A DNA stretch of 64,000 nucleotides from an uncultured Bdellovibrionales bacterium (lineage in GTDB: Bacteria; Patescibacteriota; Minisyncoccia; Moranbacterales; DUUL01). The stretch spans positions 11,417 to 75,416 of the forward strand of contig CAZKWX010000001.1 in the NCBI GenBank assembly GCA_964556685.1. The letters are read 5' to 3'. Made by a program: the position numbers and the translations under genes. Below the pieces are notes generated by a model. The model worked only from the letters and a program-made list of their open reading frames with translations. It was not told the DNA's origin and did not search any database. How positions within the stretch are numbered: the stretch's first letter is position 1; every line of letters starts with the position of its first letter. Positions 5,425 to 26,070 of the stretch are shown piece by piece.

Positions 5425-5518
5425 TTTTTATAAGCTAGTTATACGCTTTAATACTATCGCCAGTATTACGCCAGCGTATCACCAGCGTTTAGTCAAGGTG
5501 TATTACTGGCTTATATTT

Positions 5519-6073
5519 ATGTTGGAAGTTGAAGCTAAAATTAGAGTAAAAGACCTGGAAACCGCTAGAAAGAATCTCAAAAAGCTGGGAGCCAAAAAAG
5601 TGGAAGAAAAAGTCCAAATTGATAAAGTGTATGGGCGAGATTCTGATTTAGACGACGAGCATAAGGTAATTGAAGGAAGATTCAGCGCCAGGATTAGAAA
5701 GACTAACAAAGTCTGCCGGATTGATTTTAAGGAGATTTTGCGAGGCAAACCAGGCGACGAACATAACATTGAACTGAGTGACATTGATGAGGGTGATAAG
5801 TTTTTACAAAAATTGGATTATAAAGAGGCCTTCACATCGGAGAAGAAAAGGGAAATCTATGGATATGAAAGTTTTGAAATTTGCTTGGATGACTTTCCAA
5901 AACTTGGCTATTTCATTGAAGCAGAAAAAAAGATTGAAGAAGGAGAAAGCAAGGAAGATGCGTATAAAAGTTGTGTGGAAGTTTTGAAGAAAATTGATCC
6001 AAGGGGAGAGATTGAAAACAAAAAATATGGGGATTTGATTCAGGAAGTGATTAATGAGAAAGGGAAGTTTTAA
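5519..6073 (+). CDS. CYTH-domain protein (class IV adenylyl cyclase / triphosphate tunnel metalloenzyme-like)
   Basis: N-terminal MLEVEAKIRV carries the ExExK signature of CYTH. Acidic clusters downstream. The tool ORF 5384 start overlaps the atpG tail; the in-frame ATG at 5519 is preferred. Confidence 0.55.
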   Translation: MLEVEAKIRVKDLETARKNLKKLGAKKVEEKVQIDKVYGRDSDLDDEHKVIEGRFSARIRKTNKVCRIDFKEILRGKPGDEHNIELSDIDEGDKFLQKLDYKEAFTSEKKREIYGYESFEICLDDFPKLGYFIEAEKKIEEGESKEDAYKSCVEVLKKIDPRGEIENKKYGDLIQEVINEKGKF

Positions 6074-6165: not shown

Positions 6166-6654
6166 ATGAAAAAGTACAATAAAACAGTTCAAGACATTAA
6201 AACGCTGCTGGAGAAAAATGATATCGAATACAAGTTCTTTGAGCACAAACCAGTCAGGACTAGTGAAGAGGCAGTGAAAGTAAGGCCAGATTATAGTTTG
6301 CAACAAGGAGCCAAAGCTATGATTGTCAAGCCCAAAATTAATGGCGAAAGAACATTCGTGATGCTGGTTTTGCCGGGAGACAAGCGATTTGACAACAAGA
6401 AGGTGAAAAAAGTTTTGGACGCTAAAGATGTTACTTTCGCATCCGAAGAAGAAGTCGCCAAATTGACAAATGGAGTAATCCCAGGAGGAGTTCCACCGTT
6501 TGGTAATTTGTTTGGACTGAAAGTGGTTGCTGATCCTGATTTATTTAAAAATGATGAAATAGTTTTTAACTGTGGTGATCAGAGCGCTTCAATTGCAATG
6601 AAGAGTGAAGACTATGAACGAATTGTCAAACCAGAAATTGTCGAGATAACTTAG
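6166..6654 (+). CDS. YbaK/ProX-type aminoacyl-tRNA deacylase domain protein
   Basis: ~160 aa. GVIPGGVPPFGNLFG and CG..SASI motifs resemble the YbaK/EbsC trans-editing domain. Confidence 0.6.
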   Translation: MKKYNKTVQDIKTLLEKNDIEYKFFEHKPVRTSEEAVKVRPDYSLQQGAKAMIVKPKINGERTFVMLVLPGDKRFDNKKVKKVLDAKDVTFASEEEVAKLTNGVIPGGVPPFGNLFGLKVVADPDLFKNDEIVFNCGDQSASIAMKSEDYERIVKPEIVEIT

Positions 6655-8307: not shown

Positions 8308-9006
8308 ATGGTATTGCTCGGACTTACAACTTCAAAAAGATCAAATTGGCAGCAGAAAATAAGAGAAGCGTCATATTATAATATTGAAAAAATATCACTT
8401 TTCCCTACGTATTCACGGATATCTGAAAGAAAAAAACTCTACGAAGCGATTGATGGGAGTACCATTGTTGAAATACCTCATGTGCATCTGTGCCATGATA
8501 TAGAATTGTGGGAGCTAGATTATTTTGTTAAAGAATACAATACCCAAATTTTTAACATACACACTGAGAGATTATTTCCGCTGGAGAATGATATTTCAAA
8601 GTATAATTCCAAGATATTCGTTGAAAATGCAGGACTACCCACAGAGAATGAATTAAAGAAATTCGGTGGTTTCTGTATAGATTTTGCACATTGGGAAGAC
8701 TATATAAGATTAGAGGGAGAAAAGTACAATCCAGAAGAGGATAAAATCAGGGACTGGATGAAGAAGTATGATGTTGGTTGTGGTCACGTGTCAGCAATTT
8801 CAGAAGAAATACACGAAGATGAGGGCATTCCAGGAAGAATGTGTTATGCCTCGCATTGGATGAATAGTCTGGATGATATAAAATATATGAAAAAATATGT
8901 CAAGTATGTTTCTAAATATGTTAGTATTGAGTTGGATAATCCTTTCAAGGAACAACTCAAGGTGAAGAAATACTTAGAGAAAATTCTATATAAAAGGATC
9001 AATTGA
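8308..9006 (+). CDS. hypothetical protein, possibly xylose-isomerase-like TIM-barrel (sugar phosphate isomerase/epimerase) fold
   Basis: Conserved H/E/D-containing segments (IFVENAG, CIDFAHWED, CGHV). Inserted between atpD and atpC. Weak assignment. Confidence 0.3.
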   Translation: MVLLGLTTSKRSNWQQKIREASYYNIEKISLFPTYSRISERKKLYEAIDGSTIVEIPHVHLCHDIELWELDYFVKEYNTQIFNIHTERLFPLENDISKYNSKIFVENAGLPTENELKKFGGFCIDFAHWEDYIRLEGEKYNPEEDKIRDWMKKYDVGCGHVSAISEEIHEDEGIPGRMCYASHWMNSLDDIKYMKKYVKYVSKYVSIELDNPFKEQLKVKKYLEKILYKRIN

Positions 9007-9118: not shown

Positions 9119-9214
9119 ATTGGAAAGAAAAGGAATAAATAACTATACAACGTTGCTGTGTCGAGAAATAGTACTTGCCATAGTAAGTACGTCCGAGCAC
9201 GTATTAGAATCATT

Positions 9215-9871
9215 ATGATCAGAAAAAATGTCCCATTTTATGCCAATACGGCAGACAATACACACTGCTTTCAGGCTTCTTTGAAAATGGTAATGAAGTA
9301 TTTTTGGCCAAATAGGAATTATTCATGGAAAAAATTAGATAAAATCACCGCAAAAATTCCTGGACTATGGACCTGGCCAATGGCAGGACTGATCTGGTTA
9401 CAAAAACAAGGAATTGAAATTGCGATGGTTGAAGCTTTTGACTATTCAAGATTCATAAAACTAGGAGGAGAATATTTAATTGAGGAATTTGGGAAAGAAG
9501 TAGGGGAAGCCCAGATCAAACACAGTAATATAGACCAAGAAATAAGATTTGCGAAAGAATTTTTGGAGAGAATTAAAATTGAAAAACGAATTCCCAAATT
9601 AAAAGACATAAAAAGATTTTTAAAGAAAGGTTATGTCATTATATGTAATGTTAATTCTCGCAAATTAGCAAAGAAAGAAGGGTATGTCGGTCATTTTATC
9701 GTTATTTTTAATTTTAATGATAAATATCTTTTTCTTCATAACCCTGGTCTTCCACCCCAAAAAAATCAAAGAGTAAGTTTTAAGCAATTTGAAAAAGCTT
9801 GGGCTTATCCGAATGAAAGAGCAAAAGGAATAATAGCGTTAAGAATTAACATTACTAACCAAGATATTTAA
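9215..9871 (+). CDS. C39-like papain-fold cysteine peptidase domain protein
   Basis: NTHCFQASLKMVMKYFW (Cys motif) and GHFIVIF (His motif) resemble Peptidase_C39-like domains. The tool ORF starts at GTG 9158; the in-frame ATG is at 9215. Confidence 0.4.
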   Translation: MIRKNVPFYANTADNTHCFQASLKMVMKYFWPNRNYSWKKLDKITAKIPGLWTWPMAGLIWLQKQGIEIAMVEAFDYSRFIKLGGEYLIEEFGKEVGEAQIKHSNIDQEIRFAKEFLERIKIEKRIPKLKDIKRFLKKGYVIICNVNSRKLAKKEGYVGHFIVIFNFNDKYLFLHNPGLPPQKNQRVSFKQFEKAWAYPNERAKGIIALRINITNQDI

Positions 9872-9984: not shown

Positions 9985-10428
9985 ATGAAAAAAATCAACC
10001 TAAAAATAACCACTCCGGAACGAGTGGTGCTAGAAAAAGAAGTTGATCAAGTAACTCTGCCGACTAAGGGAGGGGAGATTACGATTTTGCCTGATCACGT
10101 GCCATTGCTTTCTACCATTACGGCTGGGATCATTGTGGCCAAGATCGACGAACAAATTTCTCCTATGGCGATTTCAGGCGGTTTTTTGGAATATCACAAC
10201 AATCAAGTGACGGTTTTGGCTGACACAGCAGAAAGGGTTGAAGAAATAGATTTGGATCGAGCAGAAGAAGCTCGAAAAAGAGCCGAAAAATTGAAACAGG
10301 AAACCAGGAAAACGCTTGACGAAGGACAATATGCTGCGGTGGTCTCGCAAATTGAGAAACAACTTGCTAGAATAAAAGCAGCCCAAAAATATCGACCTCG
10401 TAGCAGTTCGACATTGGGCGATGAATAG
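9985..10428 (+). CDS. atpC: F0F1 ATP synthase subunit epsilon
   Basis: N-terminal beta-sandwich (ITTPERVVLEKEVDQVTLPTKGGEITILPDHVPL) plus C-terminal helical hairpin. Last atp gene. Confidence 0.85.
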   Translation: MKKINLKITTPERVVLEKEVDQVTLPTKGGEITILPDHVPLLSTITAGIIVAKIDEQISPMAISGGFLEYHNNQVTVLADTAERVEEIDLDRAEEARKRAEKLKQETRKTLDEGQYAAVVSQIEKQLARIKAAQKYRPRSSSTLGDE

Positions 10429-11965
10429 AAATAAAAGACAAATTTTGATAAAAAAAATACCAACTTGGGTTTTGATCTCATTAGCCCTGATTTTGGCTTT
10501 GGGGCTGTTTTTACGTGTCTATAAACTTGGCCAACAATCACTCATAGCTGATGAATATTTGGGGATGAACATTAGCTATGGCTACAATCAAACAGGGGAA
10601 TGGACATTCTGGGATTTCAACAAACAAAAATTGATGGAGTGGGATTATAATCGAGCTCAAATTTATTATTGGCAAGTAGCTCAAGTTTTCAACTTTTTTG
10701 AGCCAACCGAAGCCAACTCTCGCTTGATAAGCGTGATGTGGGGAATGATCGGATTACTTTCAATTTTTTTGATTGCTTTTTGGGTGACAAAAAATTATGT
10801 TGTTGCGCTGATTTCAACCTTGCTTTTGGCAGTGAGTGTTTCTTCACTGACTTTTGATCGAAAGCTGAGAATGTATTCAATGTTTGTTCCGATATACCTT
10901 TGGCTATCCTATTTTTTATATATGTTTATAGAATCTCAGCCGAAAAGGGGGCCAAACTTTATCAAAAATATATCAGAAAAAACCAAACTTAATTGGAATT
11001 TCTTTCTGCCCGCTATTCTATTGGGACTTATATCAGTAGCAACGCATTTACTGGCAGTTAATATTGGAATAGTGTTGTTAGTCTACTTGCTAGTTATGGC
11101 TTGGAAGGCTCGCAAAAAAGAAAAAGCCTGGGCCAATCGATATTCCTATTACCTTATAGTTTTTTTGCTGCTCATTATTATTGGAATGAATTTCAGTTAT
11201 GCTCAACTAGCGTTGAAAGAATTTTCTTTCTGGATAAACAATTGGAGTTACCTATCAAAAGCCAGCTTGGATTATAGTCACATGTTTTTGGCCGGACTCT
11301 TCTTGGTGGCCGGAATATATTGGCTGATTAAAAATAATTCAAAGAAAGGAATTTGGATTGTTGTCTCATATTTAACAATTCTTTTCTTGGCAATTATGGT
11401 TTGGAGAAGAAGCGCTGGGCATCAGTATCTGCTTTTCACCCAACCTTTCAAGATTATGATCATCGCTGGTGGAATCTATTTTATTTCAGATGTTCTTTCT
11501 AAAGAAGTTTTCAATGGCTCAAGGAGGTGGTTTTGGGGACTGATTACAACCTTTTTAATATTGCTGATTAATTTTTCGTTCTTTTCCTCAAAGGAAAGCT
11601 TTTATGCTGGTCCCAAAAGTTGGTCCCACACAAACTATCGTGAGGGATATGATTATTATCATAAGCACCGAAAAGCTAACAGCGCAGTCATCATTCGTCC
11701 AGCGGTGACCTATTACCTGAAGGGCGTGAACACCGATGTCATTGAATACAATGAGGATGACAAGCTTCAGCTAGAAGAAATACTCAGCGCTCAAAGTAAG
11801 TATGATGAAATTTGGTTTATCTATTCAAAAGACACCTATGTAAGTGGAGATGCCAAGGATCATATTCGAGAGAACTTTGAACTAATCGAAACTAAATATA
11901 CTAACAAGAAATTGCAAATTAGAAGGTGGCAGAAAGAAGATACAAAAAATAACGCCAGCTCATGA
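10421..11965 (+). CDS. GT-C family membrane glycosyltransferase (PMT/ArnT-like, GT39/GT83-like), paralog 1
   Basis: ~12 TM helices. DE motif in the first extracytoplasmic loop (SLIADEYLGMN). Overlaps the atpC stop by 8 nt. Confidence 0.6.
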   Translation: MNRNKRQILIKKIPTWVLISLALILALGLFLRVYKLGQQSLIADEYLGMNISYGYNQTGEWTFWDFNKQKLMEWDYNRAQIYYWQVAQVFNFFEPTEANSRLISVMWGMIGLLSIFLIAFWVTKNYVVALISTLLLAVSVSSLTFDRKLRMYSMFVPIYLWLSYFLYMFIESQPKRGPNFIKNISEKTKLNWNFFLPAILLGLISVATHLLAVNIGIVLLVYLLVMAWKARKKEKAWANRYSYYLIVFLLLIIIGMNFSYAQLALKEFSFWINNWSYLSKASLDYSHMFLAGLFLVAGIYWLIKNNSKKGIWIVVSYLTILFLAIMVWRRSAGHQYLLFTQPFKIMIIAGGIYFISDVLSKEVFNGSRRWFWGLITTFLILLINFSFFSSKESFYAGPKSWSHTNYREGYDYYHKHRKANSAVIIRPAVTYYLKGVNTDVIEYNEDDKLQLEEILSAQSKYDEIWFIYSKDTYVSGDAKDHIRENFELIETKYTNKKLQIRRWQKEDTKNNASS

Positions 11966-12963
11966 AGATGTCTAACAAAAGAAAGGTCACTCTGATTTTG
12001 ATGGCGATTCTACTGATAGCTGTCGGAGTCAACCTATATTTATGGAAAAGTGGCGGTGGGGGAGAGAATAATCCTGGAATTCTTAAAATCGGTTTCATCA
12101 CGGATGTTCACTGCTATTCAAAACTTAACAAAGAGACCAACGAGTGGGAGATCAACTGGAGATGCAAACAGCCATTCGATGCCTTCATCAAACAAATGAA
12201 TGAAGAGTTTGGGCCTGATTTCGTAGTTGAAGGTGGAGATTTCGTTGACGGAAGAGATCGTCTAGAGGATGATGGATTTTTAAAGGCCAAAGATTTTTAT
12301 GATCAAATTCGTGCTCCGAAATATCATGTGCTAGGAAATCATGAAACCGACAACATGACCAAAGATTGCTGGAAGGAGATCGTAGGTTACGACAGCACCT
12401 ATTATTATTTTGACATCAAAGATTATCGAATGATTGTTCTGGATGCCAACAATGTTCAAACCGAAGAAGGCATTGTTGACATGAGTCCTAAAACGCCTCA
12501 TTCCTATCGGGGCTTGATGACTGATGAGCAAATGAATTGGTTGAAGAGCTTGTTTGAAGAGTCAAGCGATAAAAAAGTAATTGTGTTTATTCATGAGCCG
12601 CCATTTGATGAAACACCGGGAAGATTGAAAGAGGATCATTTTATTAACCCAAAACCATTGAGAGATTTATTTTCGCAGCATAGAGTCCTGGCAGTGTTCA
12701 GTGGGCACACAGAGGAAATGTGTGACGTGACAATAGACGGAGTGCGATATTTTTCACTCCAAGGATTCCATAAGGGAAATTCACTTTTACCCAAAGAGCA
12801 AAGGTTTAAAGATCAAGGAGCTTTTTATCAAGTGATATTAGATGAAAAAGAGGCAGACGTTGAAATGTTTTATAGTGATGGAAGAGACACGGAATATAAG
12901 TCGATGGAGATAAATCAAGATACAGCGTATTGCAATAACGACGCATTGCCAGAACAGGAATGA
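11962..12963 (+). CDS. calcineurin-like metallophosphoesterase, TM-anchored (paralog A)
   Basis: N-terminal TM helix, then GFITDVHC, GGDFVDGRD, GNHE and GHTE metallophosphoesterase motifs. Confidence 0.75.
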   Translation: MKMSNKRKVTLILMAILLIAVGVNLYLWKSGGGGENNPGILKIGFITDVHCYSKLNKETNEWEINWRCKQPFDAFIKQMNEEFGPDFVVEGGDFVDGRDRLEDDGFLKAKDFYDQIRAPKYHVLGNHETDNMTKDCWKEIVGYDSTYYYFDIKDYRMIVLDANNVQTEEGIVDMSPKTPHSYRGLMTDEQMNWLKSLFEESSDKKVIVFIHEPPFDETPGRLKEDHFINPKPLRDLFSQHRVLAVFSGHTEEMCDVTIDGVRYFSLQGFHKGNSLLPKEQRFKDQGAFYQVILDEKEADVEMFYSDGRDTEYKSMEINQDTAYCNNDALPEQE

Positions 12964-12977
12964 TATTATAAAGAATA

Positions 12978-15116
12978 ATGAAAGAGGTTGATTCAACTAA
13001 AGGGAGAAATAAAAAACCGATTATTTTATTTATCGGTATCGTGATTGCAATAGTGGCTGGAATATTCATATTTAGATCTGACAGAGAATCTTTGAGGATC
13101 GTTTTTGTCACGGATTGGGAATATGGAGAGATGAAAAGAATTGGCAGCAAAGCAAGTGGCTCGGCTGATGAAGAGCTGAAGAAGGTTGTCAAAAGCGCTC
13201 ATCGAGGCATCAACCCAGACCTGGCAATTGGAGGAGGAGACTATATCAACGGCGCAAAAATTGACGAAAAAAAGGCCACAGAGCAACTAAAGCTAGAGAG
13301 AGATATTTTCGAAAAGATAAAGTCCGAAAAAGTATATTTGTTGGGAGATCATGATTTAAAGAAAATTCCACTGCAGCAAGCAGAAGAAATTTTGGGAGTA
13401 AAATATCAAAACAATAGGATCGACAAGAAAGGATATAGGGTGGTATTTCTTAATAGTCAAGAGATTTTTAGAGGCGAGGGTGAGAGGCTAGAAAAAGAGC
13501 TAGCTTGGCTCAAGGCTCAATTGAAAGATGGATTGCCTGTAATAATTTTTTCTCATTTCAACATAATCGCAACGCCCCAAAAGGACAAATGGAAACGAGC
13601 AGCTGGAAATTCTGACAAGATCAGAGAGGTTTTACAAAACCATCCCAATGTAGTAGCAGTTATTATGGGCGAAGGACTGAGAGATTATGCGGTTAGAGAA
13701 AAGGGTATTGTATATGTCTCAATTCCTGGATTGGTTGAGCAAGATTATGTAGGGAGCTATGCTGAAATTCAGGCGACAAAGAAAGATAATTTGGCAGAAA
13801 TTAAAGTTATCCGTCGAGGAATTGACCCGATCGAATACATTATATTCAAAGACTTAACAGATATATACTCAGCTAAGATTGAAGCAAAGGGAGAAGAGAA
13901 AATTGCAGAAATTTTGTGGAACGAATTGGGCGTCCAAAAAGAGGGAAATGTGATGGCCAGCGAAAGCCAGGGGACCGAAAGCAGCCTGAGTGTTTCAGAA
14001 AACGGAAAAGTGTTTGTTGCATATGAAGATGGCGAGGATAAGAATAAGGCGAGAATAAGATCAGTTGGGGCAAAAGAAGCTCAGAATCTTGAAGGCCAAA
14101 ATAGTCAACAAGGAAAAATTAGTCAGCAAAAAGGAGGTGATCCTTTTGTTGAAGCAAGCTCGGAAAAAACATACGTTGGATTTATGGATTATCAAAATGG
14201 AGCTCGAGCTAGGATCAGGGAATGGGACGGTGTGGAGTGGAGAGATCTTGCTGATGCGAATCACCCAGAAGGCCTAATTAGTATTTCCAAAGGACACGAG
14301 CCAGTTTTGGCGCTTGATCAATCAAAACAACTCTACGTAGCTTTTAATCAAGGAGCTAATTCAGAAGTTGAATGCGGTGATGAGTTATGTTGGGTTAAGG
14401 TGATGAAATGGAGTGGCGATGTTTGGGAAGATTTAGGAGACCAGAGTTTTGTTCAGCAATCAGTCAATAATCAACCGGGAACCGAAGTGGCCATTGCTGC
14501 ATCAAAAATAGACGAGTCTGTCTACATCGCATTTCAAAATCAATCTCAAAATAACAAAATTCAGGTAAAACAATACGATGGAGAAAGATGGAAGAATATA
14601 TCAAATTTAGATAATAATTTAGCTACGAATATCTCCGGCTTCAGTCCGTCAATTACTACTGGGAAAAATGGGGGATTATACTTAGCTTATGTTGGTGAGA
14701 ATTTTGAAAAGTTATATATTCAAGAATGGGATGGAAACGAATGGCATCCTGTTGGAGATGGAGCAATTTCTTCGGGAAAATGTTCGGAAGTTGATATCGC
14801 AGTGAGTGATTCTGGGATAATATATGCAGCTTATTCGCAGTATAAGAAGAACACAATTATTCCTAAAAAATCTAAGAAAAAAAATTCAGAGGAATATTTT
14901 CCCAGCAGAAGCAATGCCTGGAGGGTTCGAGTGAAAAGGCTAAACGGAGAAAAATGGGAGAGCATTTCTGATGACTTAAATCCAAGCGGATACATATCTC
15001 GGGGAAACGGAAAAGGAGATCCGTCGTTGGATGTGTGGAAGGAAAACATTTATGTTTCATTCACCGATAAAGCCAGTGATTATAAAGTAAAAGTAAAACA
15101 AACTCAAATTAAATAG
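12978..15116 (+). CDS. TM-anchored degenerate metallophosphoesterase-like domain fused to C-terminal beta-propeller-like repeats
   Basis: N-terminal VFVTDWEYG / GGGDYING / LLGDHD / FSHFNI are divergent MPP motifs. The C-terminal ~350 aa hold 5-6 repeats of the form hYhAF ... (E/Q)WDGxxWxxh.D. Confidence 0.6.
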   Translation: MKEVDSTKGRNKKPIILFIGIVIAIVAGIFIFRSDRESLRIVFVTDWEYGEMKRIGSKASGSADEELKKVVKSAHRGINPDLAIGGGDYINGAKIDEKKATEQLKLERDIFEKIKSEKVYLLGDHDLKKIPLQQAEEILGVKYQNNRIDKKGYRVVFLNSQEIFRGEGERLEKELAWLKAQLKDGLPVIIFSHFNIIATPQKDKWKRAAGNSDKIREVLQNHPNVVAVIMGEGLRDYAVREKGIVYVSIPGLVEQDYVGSYAEIQATKKDNLAEIKVIRRGIDPIEYIIFKDLTDIYSAKIEAKGEEKIAEILWNELGVQKEGNVMASESQGTESSLSVSENGKVFVAYEDGEDKNKARIRSVGAKEAQNLEGQNSQQGKISQQKGGDPFVEASSEKTYVGFMDYQNGARARIREWDGVEWRDLADANHPEGLISISKGHEPVLALDQSKQLYVAFNQGANSEVECGDELCWVKVMKWSGDVWEDLGDQSFVQQSVNNQPGTEVAIAASKIDESVYIAFQNQSQNNKIQVKQYDGERWKNISNLDNNLATNISGFSPSITTGKNGGLYLAYVGENFEKLYIQEWDGNEWHPVGDGAISSGKCSEVDIAVSDSGIIYAAYSQYKKNTIIPKKSKKKNSEEYFPSRSNAWRVRVKRLNGEKWESISDDLNPSGYISRGNGKGDPSLDVWKENIYVSFTDKASDYKVKVKQTQIK

Positions 15117-15280
15117 AGAAGTTACGCGATCTAGGTTTAATTTCTCACAAGTAAGGCATTTTTGCCAAACGTTCGCTCCGCTTCCTAAGGTGTCAAAAAT
15201 ACCTTACTTGCGGGAAATTTCCGTTAAGTAAAGCAGGAAAGTGCGCAACTTCTATTAAATAACAATATACACTAAAAAAT

Positions 15281-16300
15281 ATGCCTAAGAAAAATAAATA
15301 CATAATATTTACGCTTATCGCAGTGCTATTGTTAGTGGGAGTTTTTTTGTATCGAACAAAAAATAGTAAGCTGATCAATGAATGGAGTGAAAAAAAGGTA
15401 GAAAAAATAGCTACCGAGCCATTAAAAGTGGGTTTCATCACTGATGCTCATTGCTATTCCAAGCAGGACAAGGACACTGGAGAGTGGACGCTAAATTGGC
15501 GCTGTCAACAGCCACTAGAAATATTCGTGAAAAAAATGAACGAAGATTTTAGGCCAGATGCGGCAATCCAAAGCGGTGATTTTATTGACGGCAAAGATGA
15601 TCATGCCGAAGGGACATTTATTGAAGCTCAAAAAATATTCGATCAATTGACAATGTCAAAATTGAAAGTGGTTGGCAACCATGAAGTTCGAGATTTCACC
15701 AAGCAGAGATGGCTGGAGATGACGGGAAATGAAAAAACCTACTACCATCAGGACATCAAGGGCTATCGCTTGGTGGTTTTGGATGCAAACAACAAACCTG
15801 GTCAGGACGGGTCGTCAGTCGACACTAGCCCGGAACTTGAATATTACCCAGGTTTTATTGACAAGGATCAAATGAAATGGCTCGAAAAACTACTGAAGAA
15901 CTCAAGAGAATACGAAGTGGTAGTTTTTGTCCACCAGCCAACATTTGCCACAGATGCAAAAGAACAAAGAGAATTGTTTGTCGGGGGAGAAGAATTGAGG
16001 AAACTTTTTGCTGAACGAGGAGTGAGGGCAGTTTTTTCTGGCCACATTGAAAGAGTTTGCAATTTTGAAGAAAATGGAGTGGAATATTTTGTGCTCAAAG
16101 GTTTCTGGAAAGAGAATGGGGGACTCAAAGAAGAATTCCAATATAAAAAAGGCGGAAACTTCAGCGAAGTTACAGTTTTGCCAGATGATGTCAAGGTCGA
16201 AATGTATCATCGGGTAGGGAGAGACATGCCCTATGGGAGCAAGGAGATAACACCCGAGAATTATTCCTGTTTTGACGGGGCGACCCTTGCTGACGATTAG
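15281..16300 (+). CDS. calcineurin-like metallophosphoesterase, TM-anchored (paralog B)
   Basis: Clear paralog of 11962..12963 (VGFITDAHCYSK, SGDFIDGKDD, VGNHE, FSGHIE). Confidence 0.75.
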   Translation: MPKKNKYIIFTLIAVLLLVGVFLYRTKNSKLINEWSEKKVEKIATEPLKVGFITDAHCYSKQDKDTGEWTLNWRCQQPLEIFVKKMNEDFRPDAAIQSGDFIDGKDDHAEGTFIEAQKIFDQLTMSKLKVVGNHEVRDFTKQRWLEMTGNEKTYYHQDIKGYRLVVLDANNKPGQDGSSVDTSPELEYYPGFIDKDQMKWLEKLLKNSREYEVVVFVHQPTFATDAKEQRELFVGGEELRKLFAERGVRAVFSGHIERVCNFEENGVEYFVLKGFWKENGGLKEEFQYKKGGNFSEVTVLPDDVKVEMYHRVGRDMPYGSKEITPENYSCFDGATLADD

Positions 16301-16316
16301 ACCGTCCATACATATT

Positions 16317-18077
16317 ATGCAAAAAGTAAAAATCAAAGAGCACTTCAGAAAAAATTGGCACCGGTGGATGCTTTTGGTTATTATTCTGTTGGCTATTTGG
16401 GTGAGGGCTTACAATTATTCTGACTGGCTGCTCATGCGCGCTGATCAAGCCAGAGATGGCTATTATGCAAAAGAAGCATTTGATAACGGGCTAGATCATT
16501 TGCGGCTTTTAGGTCCTAAAGTTGATCTGGCTTATCTTGAAGGGGACAAACTTGAAAGAGGCAACACGCTCCATTTAGCTGGTCCCTTTTATTATTACAT
16601 TCAATATTTTTCCGTGTCTGTCTTTAACACTATGGAACCCTGGGTGGTGGCTTTACCGGATTTAGTGTTTTTTCTATTATCTATTCCTCTTTTCTTTCTT
16701 CTGGCTCGAACATTTTTTTCAAAAACTAACAGTCTTTTATTGACAACCCTATATGCTTTTTCATTTTTCAACATAATTTATTCAAGATTTGCCTGGAATC
16801 CCAACCATTTATATTTTTGGATAGTATTGTTTGTCTTAAGCATGGCCAGGGTGGCAACTGAAAAAGAAAACAAGAAAAAAGGCTGGTGGTTTCTGACAGC
16901 TGTTTTTGGTTTTTTAATTATTTCACAGCTTCATTTCTTGGCCTTGGCTGGTTTTTTTATCGTCGGCATAATTTTCTGGATTATTCTCAGAAAGAGAATA
17001 AAAATCAGCAAAAAATATTGGCTGGCAGCTTTGGCTATCGTGCTTATTTTAAATATTCCTTTGGCAGTTAGTGAATACAAAAACAGAGGTGACAATGTCA
17101 AGCGATATTTAGTGGCCATGACTCGAGAAAGAGAAACGGATGATACACTTTATAAAAAAATTAGCACTACCATGAAGAAGCAGGGAGAATTTTTCTCCAT
17201 CAGTTTGACATCATTTCACGAAGAGGAAATAGCTCCGATTGAAATGATGGGCCTAGTGCTATTTTTGATTTCAATCGGAGCTTTTATTTTCCATTTGGTG
17301 AAAAAGAAGGAAATAACTACTATAAAAAACCAAAAAGTTTTATTTGTGCTGCTGCTTCTTTGGTCAGGTGTTTTCCTTTTGTTGTTTTTTCGAATTTACT
17401 TTAAACTCAACAACGCACGCTATTACATCATGTTAGTCCCAATGAGTTTTCTATTTTTAGGTTTTTGGTTGGCTATGTTGGAAAAGATTAGAAAAAAAGG
17501 CTTAGGAATTTTGATGATGATTGCCGTTTCTCTGACCTTGTTGGCAGGAAACTTGAATGCCACTGCGTACTTTTATGAATCTTTACAAGCTGGCTATAAA
17601 GCAGAAAAGTATTCACGAGATCCAAAATTGGGACCATACAGAGAATTGATAACCTTGGGCGAAATGAGACAAGCTTATATTTTCATGACTGAAGAAGCCA
17701 AAAAAGAAAACAAGGAAGCCTGTTTTCGCAACTCAAACTACCAATACAATTTAGGATTTAAGTATATTGCTGATGTCTATCATTCAGTCGAAGACTTGCG
17801 AAGTTTTAATGTTGAAGACGAAGCGCTTGATTGTAAATATTTCTACACTACCAGGGCGAAGAGAGGAGCAGGAGGCATTGATGAAGAATTTCTCGGAAGA
17901 TTTGAAAGAGGAAAACCCAAGCAATTTGGTGCGATGATTGTTTGGGAAATGAATCTTAAGGAAGGAGAAATAAAGAAAATTCTTGCAAAGAATGTTGAGG
18001 AAGTTGAAAAACCAAAGAAGAAAGATGATGAAAAAAGAATTATAATTTGGAAAGAAGTCTTCAATGGAAAAGAATAA
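16317..18077 (+). CDS. GT-C family membrane glycosyltransferase, paralog 2
   Basis: Polytopic. Shares the N-terminal WxRxYN..DWL..ADQ..D motif with paralogs 3 and 4. The tool ORF starts at TTG 16272; the ATG is at 16317. Confidence 0.6.
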   Translation: MQKVKIKEHFRKNWHRWMLLVIILLAIWVRAYNYSDWLLMRADQARDGYYAKEAFDNGLDHLRLLGPKVDLAYLEGDKLERGNTLHLAGPFYYYIQYFSVSVFNTMEPWVVALPDLVFFLLSIPLFFLLARTFFSKTNSLLLTTLYAFSFFNIIYSRFAWNPNHLYFWIVLFVLSMARVATEKENKKKGWWFLTAVFGFLIISQLHFLALAGFFIVGIIFWIILRKRIKISKKYWLAALAIVLILNIPLAVSEYKNRGDNVKRYLVAMTRERETDDTLYKKISTTMKKQGEFFSISLTSFHEEEIAPIEMMGLVLFLISIGAFIFHLVKKKEITTIKNQKVLFVLLLLWSGVFLLLFFRIYFKLNNARYYIMLVPMSFLFLGFWLAMLEKIRKKGLGILMMIAVSLTLLAGNLNATAYFYESLQAGYKAEKYSRDPKLGPYRELITLGEMRQAYIFMTEEAKKENKEACFRNSNYQYNLGFKYIADVYHSVEDLRSFNVEDEALDCKYFYTTRAKRGAGGIDEEFLGRFERGKPKQFGAMIVWEMNLKEGEIKKILAKNVEEVEKPKKKDDEKRIIIWKEVFNGKE

Positions 18078-19788
18078 TTTTCAAAAAAATTGGCACTGGT
18101 GGGTTTTGGGATCGATTATCGTTCTGGCTTTTTTCGTTCGTGTTTATAATTTTCACGACTGGCTCTATTTTGAGGCTGATCAAGTGCGTAATGCTAACAA
18201 TGCCATCGCCGCTTTTGAAAATGGACCAGGAGAACTTCCTCTGCTGGGGCCCAAAGCAGGGGGAACTGACCTCCATCTAGGACCAATTTCCTATTATTTT
18301 GAATATCTGAGCGCAATCATCACTCAGAGCACCAGACCAGAAGTTTTTGCTTTTCCCAATCTGCTATTTCTCTTGCTGCTTGTGCCTTTGACCTATTATT
18401 TTCTTTCTCACTTTTTTCCAAAAAAAATCAGCCTTTTGGTGGTTCTCGTTTTCTCACTATCATATATGGTCACTCAATATTCTCGTTTTTCTTGGAATCC
18501 AAATGCGATTTTGTTTTGGAGTCTGCTTTTTATGCTTGGGTTATATAAAACATATTCAGAAAAAGAGACTGGAAAGTCAGGCTGGTGGCTTCTTGTTATG
18601 GCTCTGAGCTACGCTGTTGCCAGCCAACTGCACATGGTGGCGTTGCTCGGGTTTCCCTTGATAGCAATTATTTTTTGGATTTTCTATCGACCATTTCACA
18701 TCAAATGGGCTTTTTGGCTAGCTAGTATTGCTCTCTTGTTTTTCTTTTATACTCCGGTGATTGTCAATGATCTGAATACCAGCGGATCCAATACGAAAAA
18801 TTTCTTGCATTCACTCGGAAGCAGGAGTGAAAAGAGAGGATTAATTGAAAGCGGAATTAAAACGGTTGATCTGCACGGAAAATATTACACTTTTGCTACG
18901 CTTTCTTTAAATGAAAAAGAATTTAAATTTTCTCATTGGTTAGGAATCTTATTTGTCATTTTTGGTTTTACACTTATTGTTCTTCATTGGAGAGGGAAGA
19001 TTAAATTGTCTAAAAAATTGCCGCGATCGTTCTTGATTCTTCTTTCTGTTTGGTTTGGTGTTTATCTGCTGATTTATTTTAGGTTAGTCTTCGACTTGGA
19101 TGAACCACGCTTTTGGTTTCCAACTATATTTTTGGCTTTTATTTTACTAGCAATTATTTTTTCCTATTTGTGGAAATATCGATGGGGAAAGCCAGCGGTT
19201 TACGTTATTACAATACTGTTAGTTTTATTGAATCTAACCGCAATCGCTAATTGGTATGGAGGTTTGAAAAACCAGGATGAAAAAAACCGCTTTGGCAGAA
19301 AACCGACAAGCACGACTTTAATTCAAAACGACTTTATTGCTTTGGGCGATATAGAAAAAGCAGCCAGCTTAATTACAGAAAGCTTAAGCGTTGGAAAAGC
19401 GTGCTTTAATACTCCCTCGACATATTTAGCATCTTATAAATTTATATTTAACAGAAACCATTCAGAATTTGAAACAAGAAGAATAGACAAGAGCATTGAA
19501 ATTGGCAATGTCGAAGGTTGTGACGTATTCATTCTGGATCATAGTGGGAACAAGAAAGAAGAGATAGAAGAAAAATTCCTGAAAAAAGGAGCCGAAATTG
19601 AGATTAAAAAAATAGGAACGCAGGGATTAATAACGATTTGGGGAGTCAATGTCATTAGGAATGTGAATGCAGAGAATCTTGAATTAACTCAATCAGACGA
19701 AGATCCTGATGGTATTAAAAAAGAAAAAAAGCCCACAAAAAGGCCTCGGTTGAAGTGGAAAGATATCTTTTCGAAAACCGGAAAGTAG
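18064..19788 (+). CDS. GT-C family membrane glycosyltransferase, paralog 3
   Basis: MEKNNFQKNWHWW..VRVYNFHDWLYFEADQVRN mirrors paralog 2. Overlaps its stop by 14 nt. Confidence 0.6.
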   Translation: MEKNNFQKNWHWWVLGSIIVLAFFVRVYNFHDWLYFEADQVRNANNAIAAFENGPGELPLLGPKAGGTDLHLGPISYYFEYLSAIITQSTRPEVFAFPNLLFLLLLVPLTYYFLSHFFPKKISLLVVLVFSLSYMVTQYSRFSWNPNAILFWSLLFMLGLYKTYSEKETGKSGWWLLVMALSYAVASQLHMVALLGFPLIAIIFWIFYRPFHIKWAFWLASIALLFFFYTPVIVNDLNTSGSNTKNFLHSLGSRSEKRGLIESGIKTVDLHGKYYTFATLSLNEKEFKFSHWLGILFVIFGFTLIVLHWRGKIKLSKKLPRSFLILLSVWFGVYLLIYFRLVFDLDEPRFWFPTIFLAFILLAIIFSYLWKYRWGKPAVYVITILLVLLNLTAIANWYGGLKNQDEKNRFGRKPTSTTLIQNDFIALGDIEKAASLITESLSVGKACFNTPSTYLASYKFIFNRNHSEFETRRIDKSIEIGNVEGCDVFILDHSGNKKEEIEEKFLKKGAEIEIKKIGTQGLITIWGVNVIRNVNAENLELTQSDEDPDGIKKEKKPTKRPRLKWKDIFSKTGK

Positions 19789-19914: not shown

Positions 19915-21060
19915 CTATATTTTCACTGGCAATCTCCAGATAACTTTGGTAGCCAAGAAGAAGTTTAACAGGGTAGCGGCAATGACGCCGATGATGGCAG
20001 CGAGAATATAGTGCAGTCCGATTGAAAGCCCGAAAGAAAAAATTGCAAAGTTGAAGAACATTGTGACAACAGAAAAAACATAATAATAGATCACTCGACG
20101 CATGCTCTCTTTTCGATCGGGTGATTTTTTGTCGCTATAAGTGAATAGGGAATTGAAAGCATAGTTCGTCAGGATTGAAACTGCTACTGCGATGATATAA
20201 GCTGGTCTTTCGACTATATTAAAAATTTCTACTAAAATTGCCAAGAGGCCAAGGTTCACAATCACGCCACTAGCTCCGACAATGCAGAATTTAATGAAAC
20301 GTCCGGCCTCAGGAACGGTGCGGAAAAGATGCCAAAGGTGACTAAAAAATTCCAGGCCTTGCTTGAGGGTAGCTTTACTTTGGTCATTTTCTCGAGGAAG
20401 AAATTTCTGTGGAACCAAAGAAACCTTTTTTGGATTTGTGCGCACAAGCAATTCAACTTGGATTTTGAAGCCTCTTGGTTCAAGTTTAACCCTTTCAAGT
20501 AGTTCTCTTTTAAAAAGAAAAAGTCCGGCCAAAGGATCAGAAGTCTTGCGAGTAGGAATGAAAATAATTTGAGTGAACCATTTCATTCCCAAGGAAACAG
20601 CTCGCCGATAGATTCCATAAGGAGTTTTGAGACTGCCTAGTCCTGTAGCGCTTCCTCCTTTCATATAACGAGAAGCGGAAACGAAGTCAGCATCATCACT
20701 GATGGCTTTTCCCAACATTGTTAGCATTACTTCTGGTGGATGTTGCAAGTCTGTGTCCATAGAACCAATATATTTGCCTTGAGATTTTTCAAAGCCAACA
20801 ATGACGGCTGAAGCCAAACCTTCTTTATTACCATAAATAAGCCTTATTTGAGGGTCTTTTTGAACCTCCCGTTCAATGATTTTTGGCGTTTCATCGTCGC
20901 TATCATCAACAAAAATCATTTCATAGTCATATTTGGTATTTGCAAAAACAGCCGTCAGCTTCTCGATTAGCGGTAATACGTTATCCTTTTCATTGAACGT
21001 GGGCAGCACAATGCTGAGCAGTTTTTGATTCTCCATGTTTATTTTTTGTAGTTGACGCAT
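19915..21060 (-). CDS. polyprenyl-phosphate glycosyltransferase (GT2, Dol-P-Man synthase-like) with C-terminal GtrA-like TM domain
   Basis: LSIVLPTFNE, FVDDSDDET and DTDLQHPPE are GT2 motifs. C-terminal 4-TM GtrA-like tail. Alternative ATG at 21036 (MENQK...). Confidence 0.75.
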   Translation of the reverse strand: MRQLQKINMENQKLLSIVLPTFNEKDNVLPLIEKLTAVFANTKYDYEMIFVDDSDDETPKIIEREVQKDPQIRLIYGNKEGLASAVIVGFEKSQGKYIGSMDTDLQHPPEVMLTMLGKAISDDADFVSASRYMKGGSATGLGSLKTPYGIYRRAVSLGMKWFTQIIFIPTRKTSDPLAGLFLFKRELLERVKLEPRGFKIQVELLVRTNPKKVSLVPQKFLPRENDQSKATLKQGLEFFSHLWHLFRTVPEAGRFIKFCIVGASGVIVNLGLLAILVEIFNIVERPAYIIAVAVSILTNYAFNSLFTYSDKKSPDRKESMRRVIYYYVFSVVTMFFNFAIFSFGLSIGLHYILAAIIGVIAATLLNFFLATKVIWRLPVKI

Positions 21061-21104: not shown

Positions 21105-22907
21105 TTATAAAACATCCTTCCAAAAAAGCCTTTCTGTTTTTCCTGACCCTCCTTCTTCATCTGGAGCTAGCTCTTTTTCTTTTTTAGTTGGTAGTTTTTC
21201 TTTTTGGACTTCCAGCTGAAAAACTTCTAACTGTCCAATTTGTTTCGAATCAACTATTTTAGTATAAGGTTGAATTTTTTTGTTGATAGAATTCTTGCCG
21301 CCAGATTTTGTTACTAAAGCAAAAATAGTGTCGACATTTTCCAAGTCACTCGACCCTCCTGCATAGGAATAGTCTATTTCGTTTTGAAGGGAAAGCAAGT
21401 ACTTCGTTGGCAGCATGTATTCTGCTTTAGTGTTATAAATCAATGTCAATCCGGGATTATTTTTGAGCATATACTCAATAGCTTTTTCAAATTGGCCTAA
21501 GGTAACCCCATCTTGGTTTTTGAGAATCAGTGTTCGGTTAGTATCAAAACTTTTTTCTTGAGAAAGTTCGTTTTCCCTGAACCAAGCGCAGGTGCCGAAA
21601 ATATTTAATAATAAGAAAATTGCTGAAATGATAAAAATTAATGGAAGATAATTTTTCACCACTCTTTTTTCTAGTGCCGAAAACCAAAGAGCGATGATGA
21701 TAAATGGGATGGGGAAAACCGGGACAAAATAACGTGGTCTGAGCAGGTACGAAGTAGTAATAGTAACTAAAAAGAACAGTACTATCCAGATAATGAGCAT
21801 GAAAAGAAAGTTTTTATCATTCTGCTTTGATTTAACCTTGTATTCTTTAATGGCCAGATAAATACCAGAAAAAATGAAAAGTAATCCAAACCCAACAGTT
21901 ATGGGGTCAGCTTTGTGGCCTTTTCGGTGACTGAATGAAGTGGTGATCAGTGAATAACCCTTAGCTTGTTCGCGGAAATTTCGAATGATTTTCTTGTGGA
22001 ACTTTTTGTCCTTTGATTTGGCCTCGAAGGCACCAAAAAAGTTTTTAGTGTTTGAAAAATCAGTCTTGAAATCACTAATAATCACTGGGGAATAAATTAT
22101 TCCGAAAATTAAGAGAGTTGTCAAAACATAAAAAAGAGAATTTTTGGAAGAAAGGATGTTTTTAACGTTTCCTGATTGAGGTTTCACCGCGAGTACTCGC
22201 GGTGAAACCTCTCTTGAGCGGTCCCAAATATAATAAACAATGAAAACTACCGAAATTGCAATTAAAGCAAAGGCGGCATAAAAATGAAGTTGCGATGCGA
22301 CAGCAAAGGCAAAGGCCCAAAGAGCAATCCAGCCAATTTTTTTCCAAAGATTCTTATTTTCTTGTAGATGACGCACATGTGCGTCATCTACAGAAGAAAA
22401 ACGCAATAGAGCATAAATTGTCAATAGCATGAAAAACGGCACGGAATTTGGATTCCAGGAGAAACGGGAATACTGAATAATTAAGAAGGAAAAAGAATAA
22501 AGTAATGTGGCTAAAAGAGCTGGCACTGGCTTGAAATAGAGTCGCAAAAATAAATAGAAGAGTGGAATGACTAGAATCGAAAACAGCAAGTCTGGATAGG
22601 CAAAAACGTCAGGGGACGAAGATTTAAAAATCGCACCAGAGGTCCATTGCATGTAATAGTAGGCTGGTCCTAATCGCAAGAAATCTGTGCCACCAGTTTC
22701 AGTTGAGACTTTCGTAGCCCTTGGTCCCAATAGCGGCAAGTTTTCTGCTCCATTTTCAATGGCTGGTTTCAAAAGGGAAGCATCTCGTGCCTGGTCCCAC
22801 TTAAAAAACAGCCAATCATGATGTTGATAGGTTCGAACCCAAATTGCTCCGGCGATGATCAGAACAAGAGCAACGCCAACCCAGATTTTTGTTTTGTTGT
22901 TATTCAT
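21105..22907 (-). CDS. GT-C family membrane glycosyltransferase, paralog 4
   Basis: MNNNKTKIW...VRTYQHHDWLFFKWDQARD. Same architecture as paralogs 2 and 3. Confidence 0.6.
   Translation of the reverse strand: MNNNKTKIWVGVALVLIIAGAIWVRTYQHHDWLFFKWDQARDASLLKPAIENGAENLPLLGPRATKVSTETGGTDFLRLGPAYYYMQWTSGAIFKSSSPDVFAYPDLLFSILVIPLFYLFLRLYFKPVPALLATLLYSFSFLIIQYSRFSWNPNSVPFFMLLTIYALLRFSSVDDAHVRHLQENKNLWKKIGWIALWAFAFAVASQLHFYAAFALIAISVVFIVYYIWDRSREVSPRVLAVKPQSGNVKNILSSKNSLFYVLTTLLIFGIIYSPVIISDFKTDFSNTKNFFGAFEAKSKDKKFHKKIIRNFREQAKGYSLITTSFSHRKGHKADPITVGFGLLFIFSGIYLAIKEYKVKSKQNDKNFLFMLIIWIVLFFLVTITTSYLLRPRYFVPVFPIPFIIIALWFSALEKRVVKNYLPLIFIISAIFLLLNIFGTCAWFRENELSQEKSFDTNRTLILKNQDGVTLGQFEKAIEYMLKNNPGLTLIYNTKAEYMLPTKYLLSLQNEIDYSYAGGSSDLENVDTIFALVTKSGGKNSINKKIQPYTKIVDSKQIGQLEVFQLEVQKEKLPTKKEKELAPDEEGGSGKTERLFWKDVL
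22364..22391. repeat. 28-bp palindrome GTAGATGACGCACATGTGCGTCATCTAC embedded in-frame in the GT-C paralog 4 CDS
   Basis: Near-copy of the 21048 palindrome. Encodes an extra ...DDAHVRHLQ... segment absent from paralogs 2 and 3 at the aligned position. Confidence 0.5.
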
Positions 22908-24903: not shown

Positions 24904-25497
24904 CTAATTATTTATTACTGATTGGAGTTCTTCGAAAACTTCATCCCGGCTTTGTTCGCCATCGATCACAGTCATTTTCCACCGCTTACAAAAAATTCTG
25001 TAAAGCTTCCTTTTATCGTGCAGATAATCAGGGCTCTGATCAATCGATTTTTCACGATTAAGAACGGCATCGGGTGAAACGTCAATGAAAATATAATAAT
25101 CAGGCGGAACAATCTTTTTTTCTGCCGAGCCTAGCAGGCCTTTAATGTTTCTCTCACCCTCTAAGTAGAGGATGTTGACTATTTGATCATAGAAATACCT
25201 GTCGGTGATGACATAGTCGTTGCCAGCTTTTTCCAATCGATCATAATATTTTTTGAATCTCGTTAGGTCAATCAATAATCCAATTTTTCGCAAAAAGATT
25301 TTGAAAAACCCAGCCGAAGTAACCGACTTGCTTTTCTTGTCTTTCGGTCTTCTCCTTAAGGTGGTGTTAGCAATAGAAAAATCAAGCACGTGAAAATATT
25401 GAACGGTTTTTCCGTTTTTCTCGAGATCATCTTTGAGCCTTTCGACTTGAGTGGATTTTCCGGAACCATCAATTCCAGAAATAGAAATGATTTTCAT
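24904..25497 (-). CDS. thymidylate kinase-family P-loop kinase (Tmk-like)
   Basis: GIDGSGKST P-loop and a DRY-like motif (ITDRYFYD) match the dTMP kinase family. Diverges elsewhere. Confidence 0.55.
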   Translation of the reverse strand: MKIISISGIDGSGKSTQVERLKDDLEKNGKTVQYFHVLDFSIANTTLRRRPKDKKSKSVTSAGFFKIFLRKIGLLIDLTRFKKYYDRLEKAGNDYVITDRYFYDQIVNILYLEGERNIKGLLGSAEKKIVPPDYYIFIDVSPDAVLNREKSIDQSPDYLHDKRKLYRIFCKRWKMTVIDGEQSRDEVFEELQSVINN

Positions 25498-26039: not shown

Positions 26040-26070
26040 CGTCAATAAGGTAATACGAAACACCTATCTA

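Follow-up and report, generated by a model that had tools for sequence, protein, structure and literature searches.

A membrane-anchored metallophosphoesterase-like domain fused to a seven-bladed beta-propeller in Patescibacteria

Background

What becomes of an enzyme domain once it is joined covalently to a beta-propeller? The question is raised by one gene in a 64,000-nucleotide stretch of DNA from a Moranbacteria-like member of the Patescibacteria (contig CAZKWX010000001.1, positions 11,417 to 75,416 of the forward strand; "the window" below means this whole stretch). The gene encodes a protein in which a metallophosphoesterase (MPP)-like domain precedes a repeat array. A first-pass annotation, made from the sequence alone, had proposed that an MPP-fold domain, its ligand set altered, is joined in this protein to beta-propeller repeats, and both the fusion and the repeats are confirmed here. 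We find that the MPP domain belongs to a separate subfamily, that the loss of part of its metal site is confined to members fused to the propeller, and that linkage of MPP and propeller genes recurs.

Architecture of the fusion protein

The open reading frame (ORF) is divided as follows.

12978..15116, forward strand: whole ORF, 712 amino acids plus stop, ATG start; transmembrane (TM) anchor, MPP-like domain, seven-bladed propeller
12978..13073, forward strand: signal-anchor, with a basic tail (residues 1-13, five Lys/Arg) and a hydrophobic helix (residues 14-32)
13074..13898, forward strand: MPP-fold (calcineurin-like phosphoesterase) domain of what we call the DWE type, residues 33-307, recognized by Pfam PF00149, profile search and Foldseek

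The full-length AlphaFold2 (AF2) model (predicted local distance difference test, or pLDDT, 91.6; predicted template-modeling score, or pTM, 0.79) begins with a TM helix (residues 13-32), followed by the alpha/beta sandwich of the MPP domain and then by the propeller. The anchor would place the remainder of the 712-residue protein outside the cytoplasm, an orientation that we infer from the positive-inside rule. Public data include an identical protein, P0001, encoded on a 165-kb contig.

The MPP-like domain belongs to a separate subfamily

The domain scores 26.4 bits with Pfam PF00149 (Metallophos; gathering threshold, 21.5) over residues 39-231, which cover profile positions 1-186 of 191; the two MPPs encoded on either side score 61.2 bits (11962..12963) and 45.0 bits (15281..16300). 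In a profile comparison with Protein Data Bank (PDB) sequences, the best solved relatives were Rv0805 (1e-7) and GpdQ (9e-7), and the nearest folds by Foldseek were 2nxf, GpdQ, and Rv0805, with template-modeling scores, normalized to the target, of 0.53-0.67. NCBIfam equivalogs are not reached (22.7 bits for CpdA, cut-off 225; 23.5 bits for SpdA, cut-off 400), and GHxH reads GEGL. The four MPP blocks named by the first-pass annotation are all present: VFVTDWEYG (residues 42-50), GGGDYING (85-92), LLGDHD (121-126), and FSHFNI (191-196). Aligned to both flanking MPPs and to GpdQ, the ligand positions lie as follows.

13113..13121, forward strand: block I, D46-W47-E48, with Glu at the canonical His position; invariant in all fused and unfused DWE-type proteins
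13239..13241, forward strand: block II, bridging Asp D88 in GGGDY; invariant
13347..13352, forward strand: block III, D124-H125 (canonically Asn-His); varies freely among fused proteins
13554..13556, forward strand: block IV, His H193; invariant
13671..13679, forward strand: block V/VI, E232-G233-L234 (canonically H-x-H); first His lost in 14 of 14 fused proteins

Three of the seven canonical ligands are thus kept in the window protein (D46, D88, H193), three are replaced by carboxylates (E48, D124, E232), and one is lost (L234); the catalytic His of the GNH motif is kept (H125). The flanking MPPs (DxH, GD, GNHE, H, GH) keep six of the seven, with Glu at the last position. The window protein is therefore neither a canonical MPP, with seven ligands and the GNH His, nor a plain full-site paralog.

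A search with an N-domain profile returned 57 proteins, 56 of them stand-alone MPPs of 270-420 amino acids, with E values down to 1e-86. We defined the DWE-type subfamily from 56 unfused proteins. All 56 have D-W-E, GGDY, GNHD (GDHD in three), the block IV His, and GH, and none has the last His. Because all 56 share them, the His-to-Glu change in block I and the missing last His are ancient conserved traits and not decay. The claim that several canonical ligands had been lost stands, with only three of seven kept, but two of the differences are old properties of the subfamily. The window protein carries the defining D46-W47-E48 and G86-G87-D88-Y89, and a DWE-family hidden Markov model (HMM), whose alignment included the window protein itself, gives it 318 bits. 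It departs from the pattern invariant in unfused members (GNHD and GH): its GDHD is tolerated, as in 3 of the 56, and its block V GE never occurs among them.

The N-domain had also been described as a degenerate paralog of the flanking MPPs. We reject this description, because the domain is closer in identity to stand-alone DWE-type MPPs (28-37%) than to both flanking MPPs (21-23%); it is not a recent paralog of the latter.

Loss of the second metal site is confined to fused proteins

Further loci were sought by scanning 185,579 species-representative genomes with an alignment-based query; the same scan of genome contigs with a single protein as query gave no match. Genes at the loci found were classified by three HMMs, and the ligand positions were then sorted by architecture.

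Fused to propeller (n = 14): D46, E48, D88, and H193 invariant; position 124, N in 4, K in 5, A in 2, and D, G, and S in 1 each; position 125, H, R, and K in 3 each, Q and N in 2 each, and A in 1; position 232, N in 11, D in 2, E in 1, and never H
Unfused (n = 22): D46, E48, D88, and H193 invariant; position 124, N (one D); position 125, H; position 232, H

Among fused proteins, N124 is kept in 4 of 14, H125 in 3, and the block V His in none. Position 232 is His not only in the 22 unfused proteins but also in all 57 proteins from the N-domain profile search. The unfused set includes two DWE-type MPP genes that directly abut a separate propeller gene, and both keep the full site. As read from these alignments, decay is restricted to the propeller-fused branch, where it affects N124 and H232 of the second metal site as well as the catalytic H125. 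In the terms of GpdQ and Rv0805, mapped through the GpdQ alignment, the first site survives, and the second site and the catalytic His are released from selection only in fused proteins.

Decay is uneven among the fused members. The window protein, L001, and L002 are the least decayed. Relative to the DWE subfamily, the window protein itself has changed only at N124D and H232E, and L001 and L002, its closest fused relatives, keep GNHD and have Asp at position 232. In a neighbor-joining tree of N-domains, branch lengths of fused members (0.34) are no longer than those of unfused members (0.36), and therefore the relaxation is local and not a general acceleration. Fused N-domains form two neighboring basal lineages in this tree, which leaves the ancestral architecture and the monophyly of fused proteins unsettled. 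Among fused proteins, the C-domain (30-44% identity) is as conserved as the N-domain (28-34%) or more so.

The C-terminal half is a seven-bladed beta-propeller

The first-pass annotation counted five or six repeats and suggested modeling them as a possible six-bladed propeller. All five of its quoted W-x-G-x-x-W units exist and the repeats are modeled as a propeller, but the units number seven, two having been missed, and the AF2 model gives seven blades, probably velcro-closed. For residues 308-712, modeled with an 18-sequence alignment, pLDDT is 91.7 and pTM is 0.91, and the model contains seven blades of four beta-strands; the fold is that of a seven-bladed beta-propeller.

13911..13934, forward strand: strand ILWNELGV, residues 312-319, with W314; putative fourth, outer strand of blade 7
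13935..14096, forward strand: blade 1, residues 320-373; W-x-G-x-x-W degenerate; carries conserved E334
14097..14255, forward strand: blade 2, residues 374-426, motif REWDGVEWRDLAD; carries D388 (D/N across the family)
14256..14441, forward strand: blade 3, residues 427-488, motif MKWSGDVWEDLGD; invariant E441-P442; B-C loop with C472 and C477
14442..14606, forward strand: blade 4, residues 489-543, motif KQYDGERWKNISN; invariant E503
14607..14759, forward strand: blade 5, residues 544-594, motif QEWDGNEWHPVGD; S556-P557 where other blades are acidic
14760..14972, forward strand: blade 6, residues 595-665, motif KRLNGEKWESISD; invariant E604; long Lys-rich beta-hairpin arm
14973..15113, forward strand: blade 7, residues 666-712; three strands only; GKGDP motif with D681 (17 of 18 sequences)

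The two exceptional units are the first, whose motif is degenerate in the window protein (RSVGAKEAQNLEG; homologues have KMYDGERWQDLAD), and the seventh, from which the last strand is missing. With a profile derived from units 2-5, the three held-out units scored 32, 29, and 19 bits, and no score above 8.1 bits arose from 300 shuffled versions of the C-terminal half; therefore, the repeat is far beyond chance. W314 is invariant in an alignment of eight fusion proteins and at least 70% conserved in the 18-propeller family, and a DSSP strand (315-317) is adjacent. In the model, the N-terminal strand next to W314 probably completes the three-strand blade 7 as a velcro closure. This closure, like the acid positions described below, was deduced from DSSP strings and general propeller topology.

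Structural matches to the propeller are led by CylK (34.4; 322 residues aligned, 2.5 A), Vgb lyase (30.0), and integrin alpha (about 29), followed by WD40 proteins (26-29) and BP39L and PLL lectins (27-28); identity over all matches is 7-14%. Foldseek gave generic propeller matches, with template-modeling scores of 0.4-0.6, to GH145/BNR_4, PL42, ulvan lyases, sialidases, the LGI1 EPTP domain, and AAL and PLL/PHL lectins. Searching PDB sequences with the propeller profile found nothing better than E = 0.37, and a search with a member of the related repeats of type IX secretion systems (T9SS) found no solved relative.

Acid positions and a basic arm on the propeller

In the 18-member single-propeller family, four glutamates (E334, E441, E503, and E604) never vary, an aspartate (D681) occurs in 17 of 18 sequences, and position 388 holds D or N. 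These acids, at the start of the innermost strand, are the most conserved nonstructural positions in the family, and T9SS-type repeats have no conserved acid there. From the general topology of propellers, the Glu/Asp of five blades should ring one mouth of the central channel. The arm of blade 6 (residues 612-658, nt 14811..14951) comprises 47 Lys-rich residues, with a pI of 10.3 versus 5.1 for the propeller, and forms strands 615-631 and 640-656 in the full-length AF2 model. It is present in most fused proteins and absent from the stand-alone propeller P0004.

Recurrence of the fusion and of its parts

A word-indexed search of 5.8 billion proteins gave only three non-self homologues of the whole protein. 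The fusion is nonetheless present in about 11 species-representative genomes, and further metagenome proteins share its uninterrupted architecture at 30-39% identity. All fused loci are from Patescibacteria, most of them labeled Moranbacteria or Moraniibacteriota, and one homologue is already annotated plainly as "metallophosphoesterase". The two parts are also encoded separately: in L016 and L017 a propeller gene directly follows a DWE-type MPP gene, and in L007 a propeller gene follows an MPP of the type that flanks the fusion gene in the window (flank type).

A widespread repeat without a curated model

The repeat is widespread. When 1.84 billion cluster representatives were searched exhaustively by profile, 7,679 proteins matched at E<=1e-3, of which 2,851 reached E<=1e-10. 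A few of these are 700-residue fusions or 400-residue stand-alone propellers; the majority are large multicopy proteins. A T9SS sorting domain occurs in 31 of 50 sampled repeat proteins, and the largest proteins matched combine the repeat with SprB, FG-GAP, Laminin_G_3, HYR, and lamin-tail domains, which is the make-up of giant surface adhesin-like proteins.

The remark in the first-pass annotation that the repeat fits no nameable family proved apt, since Pfam and NCBIfam give only subthreshold or composite matches. Neither database has a dedicated model for it, and the partial matches are to DUF6087, Rax2, BNR_4, and ISOA1-3_C. The window protein has no Pfam match at E<=1 to WD40, Kelch, BNR/Asp-box, FG-GAP, NHL, PQQ, Reg_prop, or TolB/PD40, and contains neither an Asp-box nor a GH...WD pattern. 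It does not match BNR_4 (PF15892; cut-off, 27.3 bits), for which P0007 scores 21.5 bits, below the cut-off; some T9SS relatives pass this model as whole proteins without any single passing stretch. With ISOA1-3_C (PF21156), the window protein totals 29.3 bits against a cut-off of 27.3, but no single stretch passes, and the best covers profile positions 26-58 of 106. We dismissed this match as spurious, the total probably being a sum of weak blade hairpins. A precomputed assignment to PF26660 (PH_41, "faint") was dismissed as well, because it is absent from the direct Pfam scan at E<=1. Literature searches returned nothing relevant on the T9SS propeller repeat, the "PYVAY" motif, or MPPs of Patescibacteria, also called the candidate phyla radiation (CPR), with glycosyltransferases.

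Gene neighborhood

In the branch that holds the window protein, the fusion gene lies in an envelope-glycosylation neighborhood that includes putative glycosyltransferases of the C type (GT-C) and of families 2 and 4 (GT2, GT4).

10421..11965, forward strand: multipass membrane protein, GT-C-like by position and by phmmer matches to neighbors at related loci; no Pfam hit
11962..12963, forward strand: upstream canonical flank-type MPP, TM-anchored; DVH / GD / GNHE / H / GH-x-E; ends 14 nt before the fusion gene
15281..16300, forward strand: downstream canonical flank-type MPP, 41% identical to the upstream MPP
16272..18077, forward strand: GT-C-like membrane protein; PMT_2, 34.7 bits
18064..19788, forward strand: membrane protein read as GT-C-like; only subthreshold Wzy_C
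19915..21060, reverse strand: GT2 fused to a GtrA/DPMS TM domain, of a kind expected to make polyprenyl-phosphate sugar
21105..22907, reverse strand: PMT-type GT-C

The opposite strand also holds a Wzx-type flippase and a GT4. On the forward strand, the fusion gene stands in a run that follows atpC: a GT-C-like gene, a flank-type MPP, the fusion, a flank-type MPP, and two GT-C-like genes. The two ends of the gene at 10421..11965 overlap atpC and the upstream MPP gene, respectively, and the gene is conserved upstream of MPP genes in relatives. Genes across 9985..19788 overlap or abut, and from this spacing the envelope cluster appears to be cotranscribed with the end of the atp operon. The junction of atpC with the membrane-protein gene is also found in L001, L002, and L010.

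Both L001 and L002 repeat the gene order of the window. Synteny with the window extends to L004, but there the DWE-type MPP is unfused and a propeller is absent, and L003 and the contig of P0004 hold a larger GT4 / PMT_2 / GT2 cluster. GT-C, GT2-GtrA, and Wzx neighbors are found at the window, L001, L002, L010, L011, both split loci, the loci with a flank-type MPP and a propeller gene, and 10 of 20 stand-alone DWE loci. A universal GT-C context was rejected because four fused loci have a different neighborhood. At these four (L013, L014, L015, and L038), which encode the most decayed proteins (K124, K/N125), the order is CHAP-LysM hydrolase, tyrosine recombinase, VTT/DedA, small ORF, fusion, RecG, GT4, and alpha/beta hydrolase. 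Compensation for the decay by a neighboring flank-type MPP is tenable only in part, because the same four proteins have no flank-type MPP within 6 kb.

Several side observations concern the surrounding genes. The flank-type MPPs (11962..12963 and 15281..16300; 6932..8017 in L001; 3616..4728 in L007) form their own subfamily, DxH..NWRC..GNHE..GH-x-E, in which the last MPP His is replaced by Glu. They share Cys positions (HCY, NWRC, and a C-terminal Cys), none of which occurs in the DWE type, and these Cys residues may form disulfides in an extracytoplasmic domain. Four large multipass GT-C-like proteins and one GT2-GtrA are encoded within 12 kb; two of the four match PMT/PMT_2, and two are placed by weak hits and context. 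This arrangement suggests that a single lipid-linked sugar donor serves several acceptor specificities.

The F-type ATP synthase operon of the window is interrupted by a CYTH-domain ORF (5384..6073) and a YbaK/tRNA_edit ORF (6166..6654) between atpG and atpD, and by an ORF without a Pfam match (8308..9006) and a C39-like/Guanylate_cyc_2 ORF (9158..9871) between atpD and atpC. In L001, unlike the window, the gamma, beta, and epsilon genes are contiguous. A reverse-strand ORF of 188 amino acids (25494..26063), which adjoins the thymidylate kinase gene, matches only positions 1-166 of the 347 in MFS_1 and may be a truncated or split transporter gene. No tRNA genes were found in the window. L004/L035 (CAZCNN010000001.1) and other loci labeled "uncultured Bdellovibrionales" share GT-C, DWE-type MPP, Wzx, thymidylate kinase, RtcB, and GT4 genes in synteny with the window. 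Because these loci are syntenic with a Patescibacteria window, the "Bdellovibrionales" label on their metagenome-assembled genomes (MAGs) is probably wrong.

A proposed role and its alternatives

Our leading interpretation, to which we give about an even chance, is that the window encodes a type II membrane-anchored extracytoplasmic protein in which a weakened DWE-type MPP pedestal carries a ligand-binding propeller with a part in envelope glycosylation. The unfused DWE-type MPPs, in envelope-glycosylation clusters, have the look of functional di-metal phosphoesterases. Fused members keep the first metal site (D46, E48, D88) and H193, and their second site (N124, H232) and H125 are freed from selection; the MPP domain would most likely be no canonical enzyme but a pedestal, weakly hydrolytic or nonhydrolytic, that binds phosphate and metal. 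As the least decayed member, the window protein may still bind two metals through the carboxylates D124 and E232. The propeller would be the part that binds a cell-envelope glycopolymer or a lipid-linked phospho-sugar, possibly through a cation. This putative binding role is argued by analogy from the adhesin-like use of the repeat, together with the regularity of the blades, the conserved acids, and the basic arm. The MPP domain would then serve as a pedestal or scaffold, and the propeller would work alongside the neighboring canonical MPPs and the GT2-GtrA/GT-C machinery.

Several points weigh against this proposal. We found no functional evidence, solved structure, or paper for members of the repeat family or of the DWE-type MPP subfamily. 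GT-C context is absent from 4 of the 10 fused loci, and the acid ring and the velcro strand are placed by DSSP strings and general topology. In addition, a metal-capable residue occupies six of the seven ligand positions of the window protein, which also keeps the catalytic H125 and so may still be an enzyme; N124D is also found in unfused, apparently intact proteins (P0198, P0200, P0203, and L025) in which all other ligand positions are intact; and the invariance of D46, E48, D88, and H193 in all fused proteins disfavors a purely structural pedestal.

The last three of these points favor the strongest alternative, namely that the window protein retains an active phosphoesterase in its N-domain, with the metal site shifted toward carboxylates and the propeller directing the enzyme to a polymeric envelope substrate in the manner of a carbohydrate-binding module. 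A site composed of D46, E48, D88, D124, H193, and E232, with H125, might favor harder metals, for example Mn2+, Mg2+, or Ca2+. The GNHD and Asp232 of L001 and L002 point the same way, and the full-length pTM of 0.79 is consistent with a fixed two-domain unit. However, N124 and H125 have given way to K, A, G, S, R, or Q in other members of the fused clade, and therefore the function conserved among fused proteins cannot be hydrolysis. None of the 14 retains the block V His, the Pfam score of the N-domain is low beside those of the flanking MPPs (under half, compared with the 61.2 bits upstream), and the canonical MPP genes on both sides could supply catalysis. We regard continued activity as possible but clearly the less probable explanation.

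It is more doubtful still that the propeller itself is catalytic, acting through the Glu/Asp at its channel mouth as a cation-dependent lyase or hydrolase of an envelope glycopolymer, with the MPP domain as scaffold. The Foldseek matches do include GH145 glycosidases, PL42, PL24, and PL25 lyases, and sialidases, and the acid positions, the most conserved of the nonstructural sites, are specific to the single-propeller subfamily. Those matches, however, have 7-13% identity and scores that indicate generic propeller likeness; the high regularity of the blades recalls lectins and adhesins and differs from most propeller enzymes; giant adhesin-like proteins are made up of this repeat as well; and no catalytic set of His, Tyr, or Arg was identified.

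A bolder proposal, which we consider a long shot, returns to both domains. The Patescibacteria single-propeller, with its inner-strand Glu/Asp positions and basic arm, would be a new cation-dependent module that binds or cleaves a phosphate-containing envelope glycopolymer or lipid-linked intermediate; the second metal site of the DWE-type MPP that it captured would have become dispensable, and the propeller face and the half MPP site would form a composite pocket. If true, the biogenesis of CPR cell envelopes would involve an active or recognition site of a new kind.

Finally, although the split adjacent genes of L016 and L017 mean that a lost stop codon could in principle give a false fusion, an artifact of assembly, frameshift, or a chance low-complexity repeat is excluded for practical purposes by recurrence across divergent genomes: the same architecture occurs in about 11 independent species-representative MAGs and in metagenome proteins, fused members share changes not found in the split genes, the repeat is statistically solid, and the AF2 model is confident.

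Significance and comparison with known systems

The envelopes of Patescibacteria are almost uncharacterized, and the genes described here point to an extracytoplasmic glycosylation module that is conserved and includes membrane-anchored phosphoesterases. The analysis also defines an MPP subfamily (D-W-E / GGDY / GNHD / H / GH) that, in half or more of the sampled loci, is tied to GT-C / GT2-GtrA clusters. The comparison of architectures is a natural experiment on the origin of pseudoenzymes, with a full site when the MPP is alone or beside a propeller gene, and one metal site lost when the two are covalently fused. The repeat, present in thousands of proteins, many of them giant and T9SS adhesin-like, deserves a family definition. 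Overall, we see a tidy case of enzyme-domain decay after fusion, with a function suggested by sequence, that changes no major concept. Both folds, and pseudo-MPPs, are of kinds already known; what is new is the DWE-type subfamily, the correlation of fusion with loss of one metal site, the abundant uncurated repeat, and the acids specific to its Patescibacteria form.

Among di-metal MPPs, GpdQ (the glycerophosphodiesterase of Enterobacter aerogenes) and Rv0805 (a class III phosphodiesterase of M. tuberculosis) share the alpha/beta sandwich fold and the order of motif blocks, and D46, D88, H193, and positions 232 and 234 fall on ligand motifs of GpdQ. Identity to these two is only 12-16%, the window protein has D-x-E in place of D-x-H, GDH in place of GNH, and GE-x-L in place of GH-x-H, and it adds an N-terminal membrane anchor and a 400-residue propeller.

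Vps29 of retromer and the B subunits of archaeo-eukaryotic DNA polymerases are MPP folds without catalytic metal ligands that serve as interaction modules. The concept is the same, with no specific sequence relationship; in the present case, the half-site (D46, E48, D88, H193) is invariant, the setting is the bacterial surface, and the partner is a covalently attached propeller.

The nearest relatives of the N-domain are the stand-alone DWE-type MPPs of Patescibacteria (for example P0161 and P0205), which are labeled "Icc-related phosphoesterase", "CpdA", or "hypothetical". They share with the fusion D-W-E, GGDY, the TM anchor, and a similar GT-C / GT2 / Wzx neighborhood, and differ in that they always keep GNHD (rarely GDHD) and GH and have no propeller.

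For the C-terminal half, likeness to propellers that act on carbohydrates or small molecules (PLL/PHL/BP39L, GH145, PL42, PL24, PL25, Vgb, CylK) is at the level of fold, with 7-14% identity. By profile, the repeat of about 55 residues belongs to the same family as the Bacteroidota T9SS repeat of about 57 residues (consensus GFS..SLAiD..G.PYVAY.D.....K.TV.KFNG..W..VG), and the two share a strand pattern and the Y-V-A-[YF] and [WF]-x-G-x-x-W anchors. The T9SS repeats, however, form long arrays in giant secreted proteins with Por_Secre_tail, SprB, FG-GAP, and other domains, carry no conserved acid at the inner-strand start, and are unlinked to MPPs.

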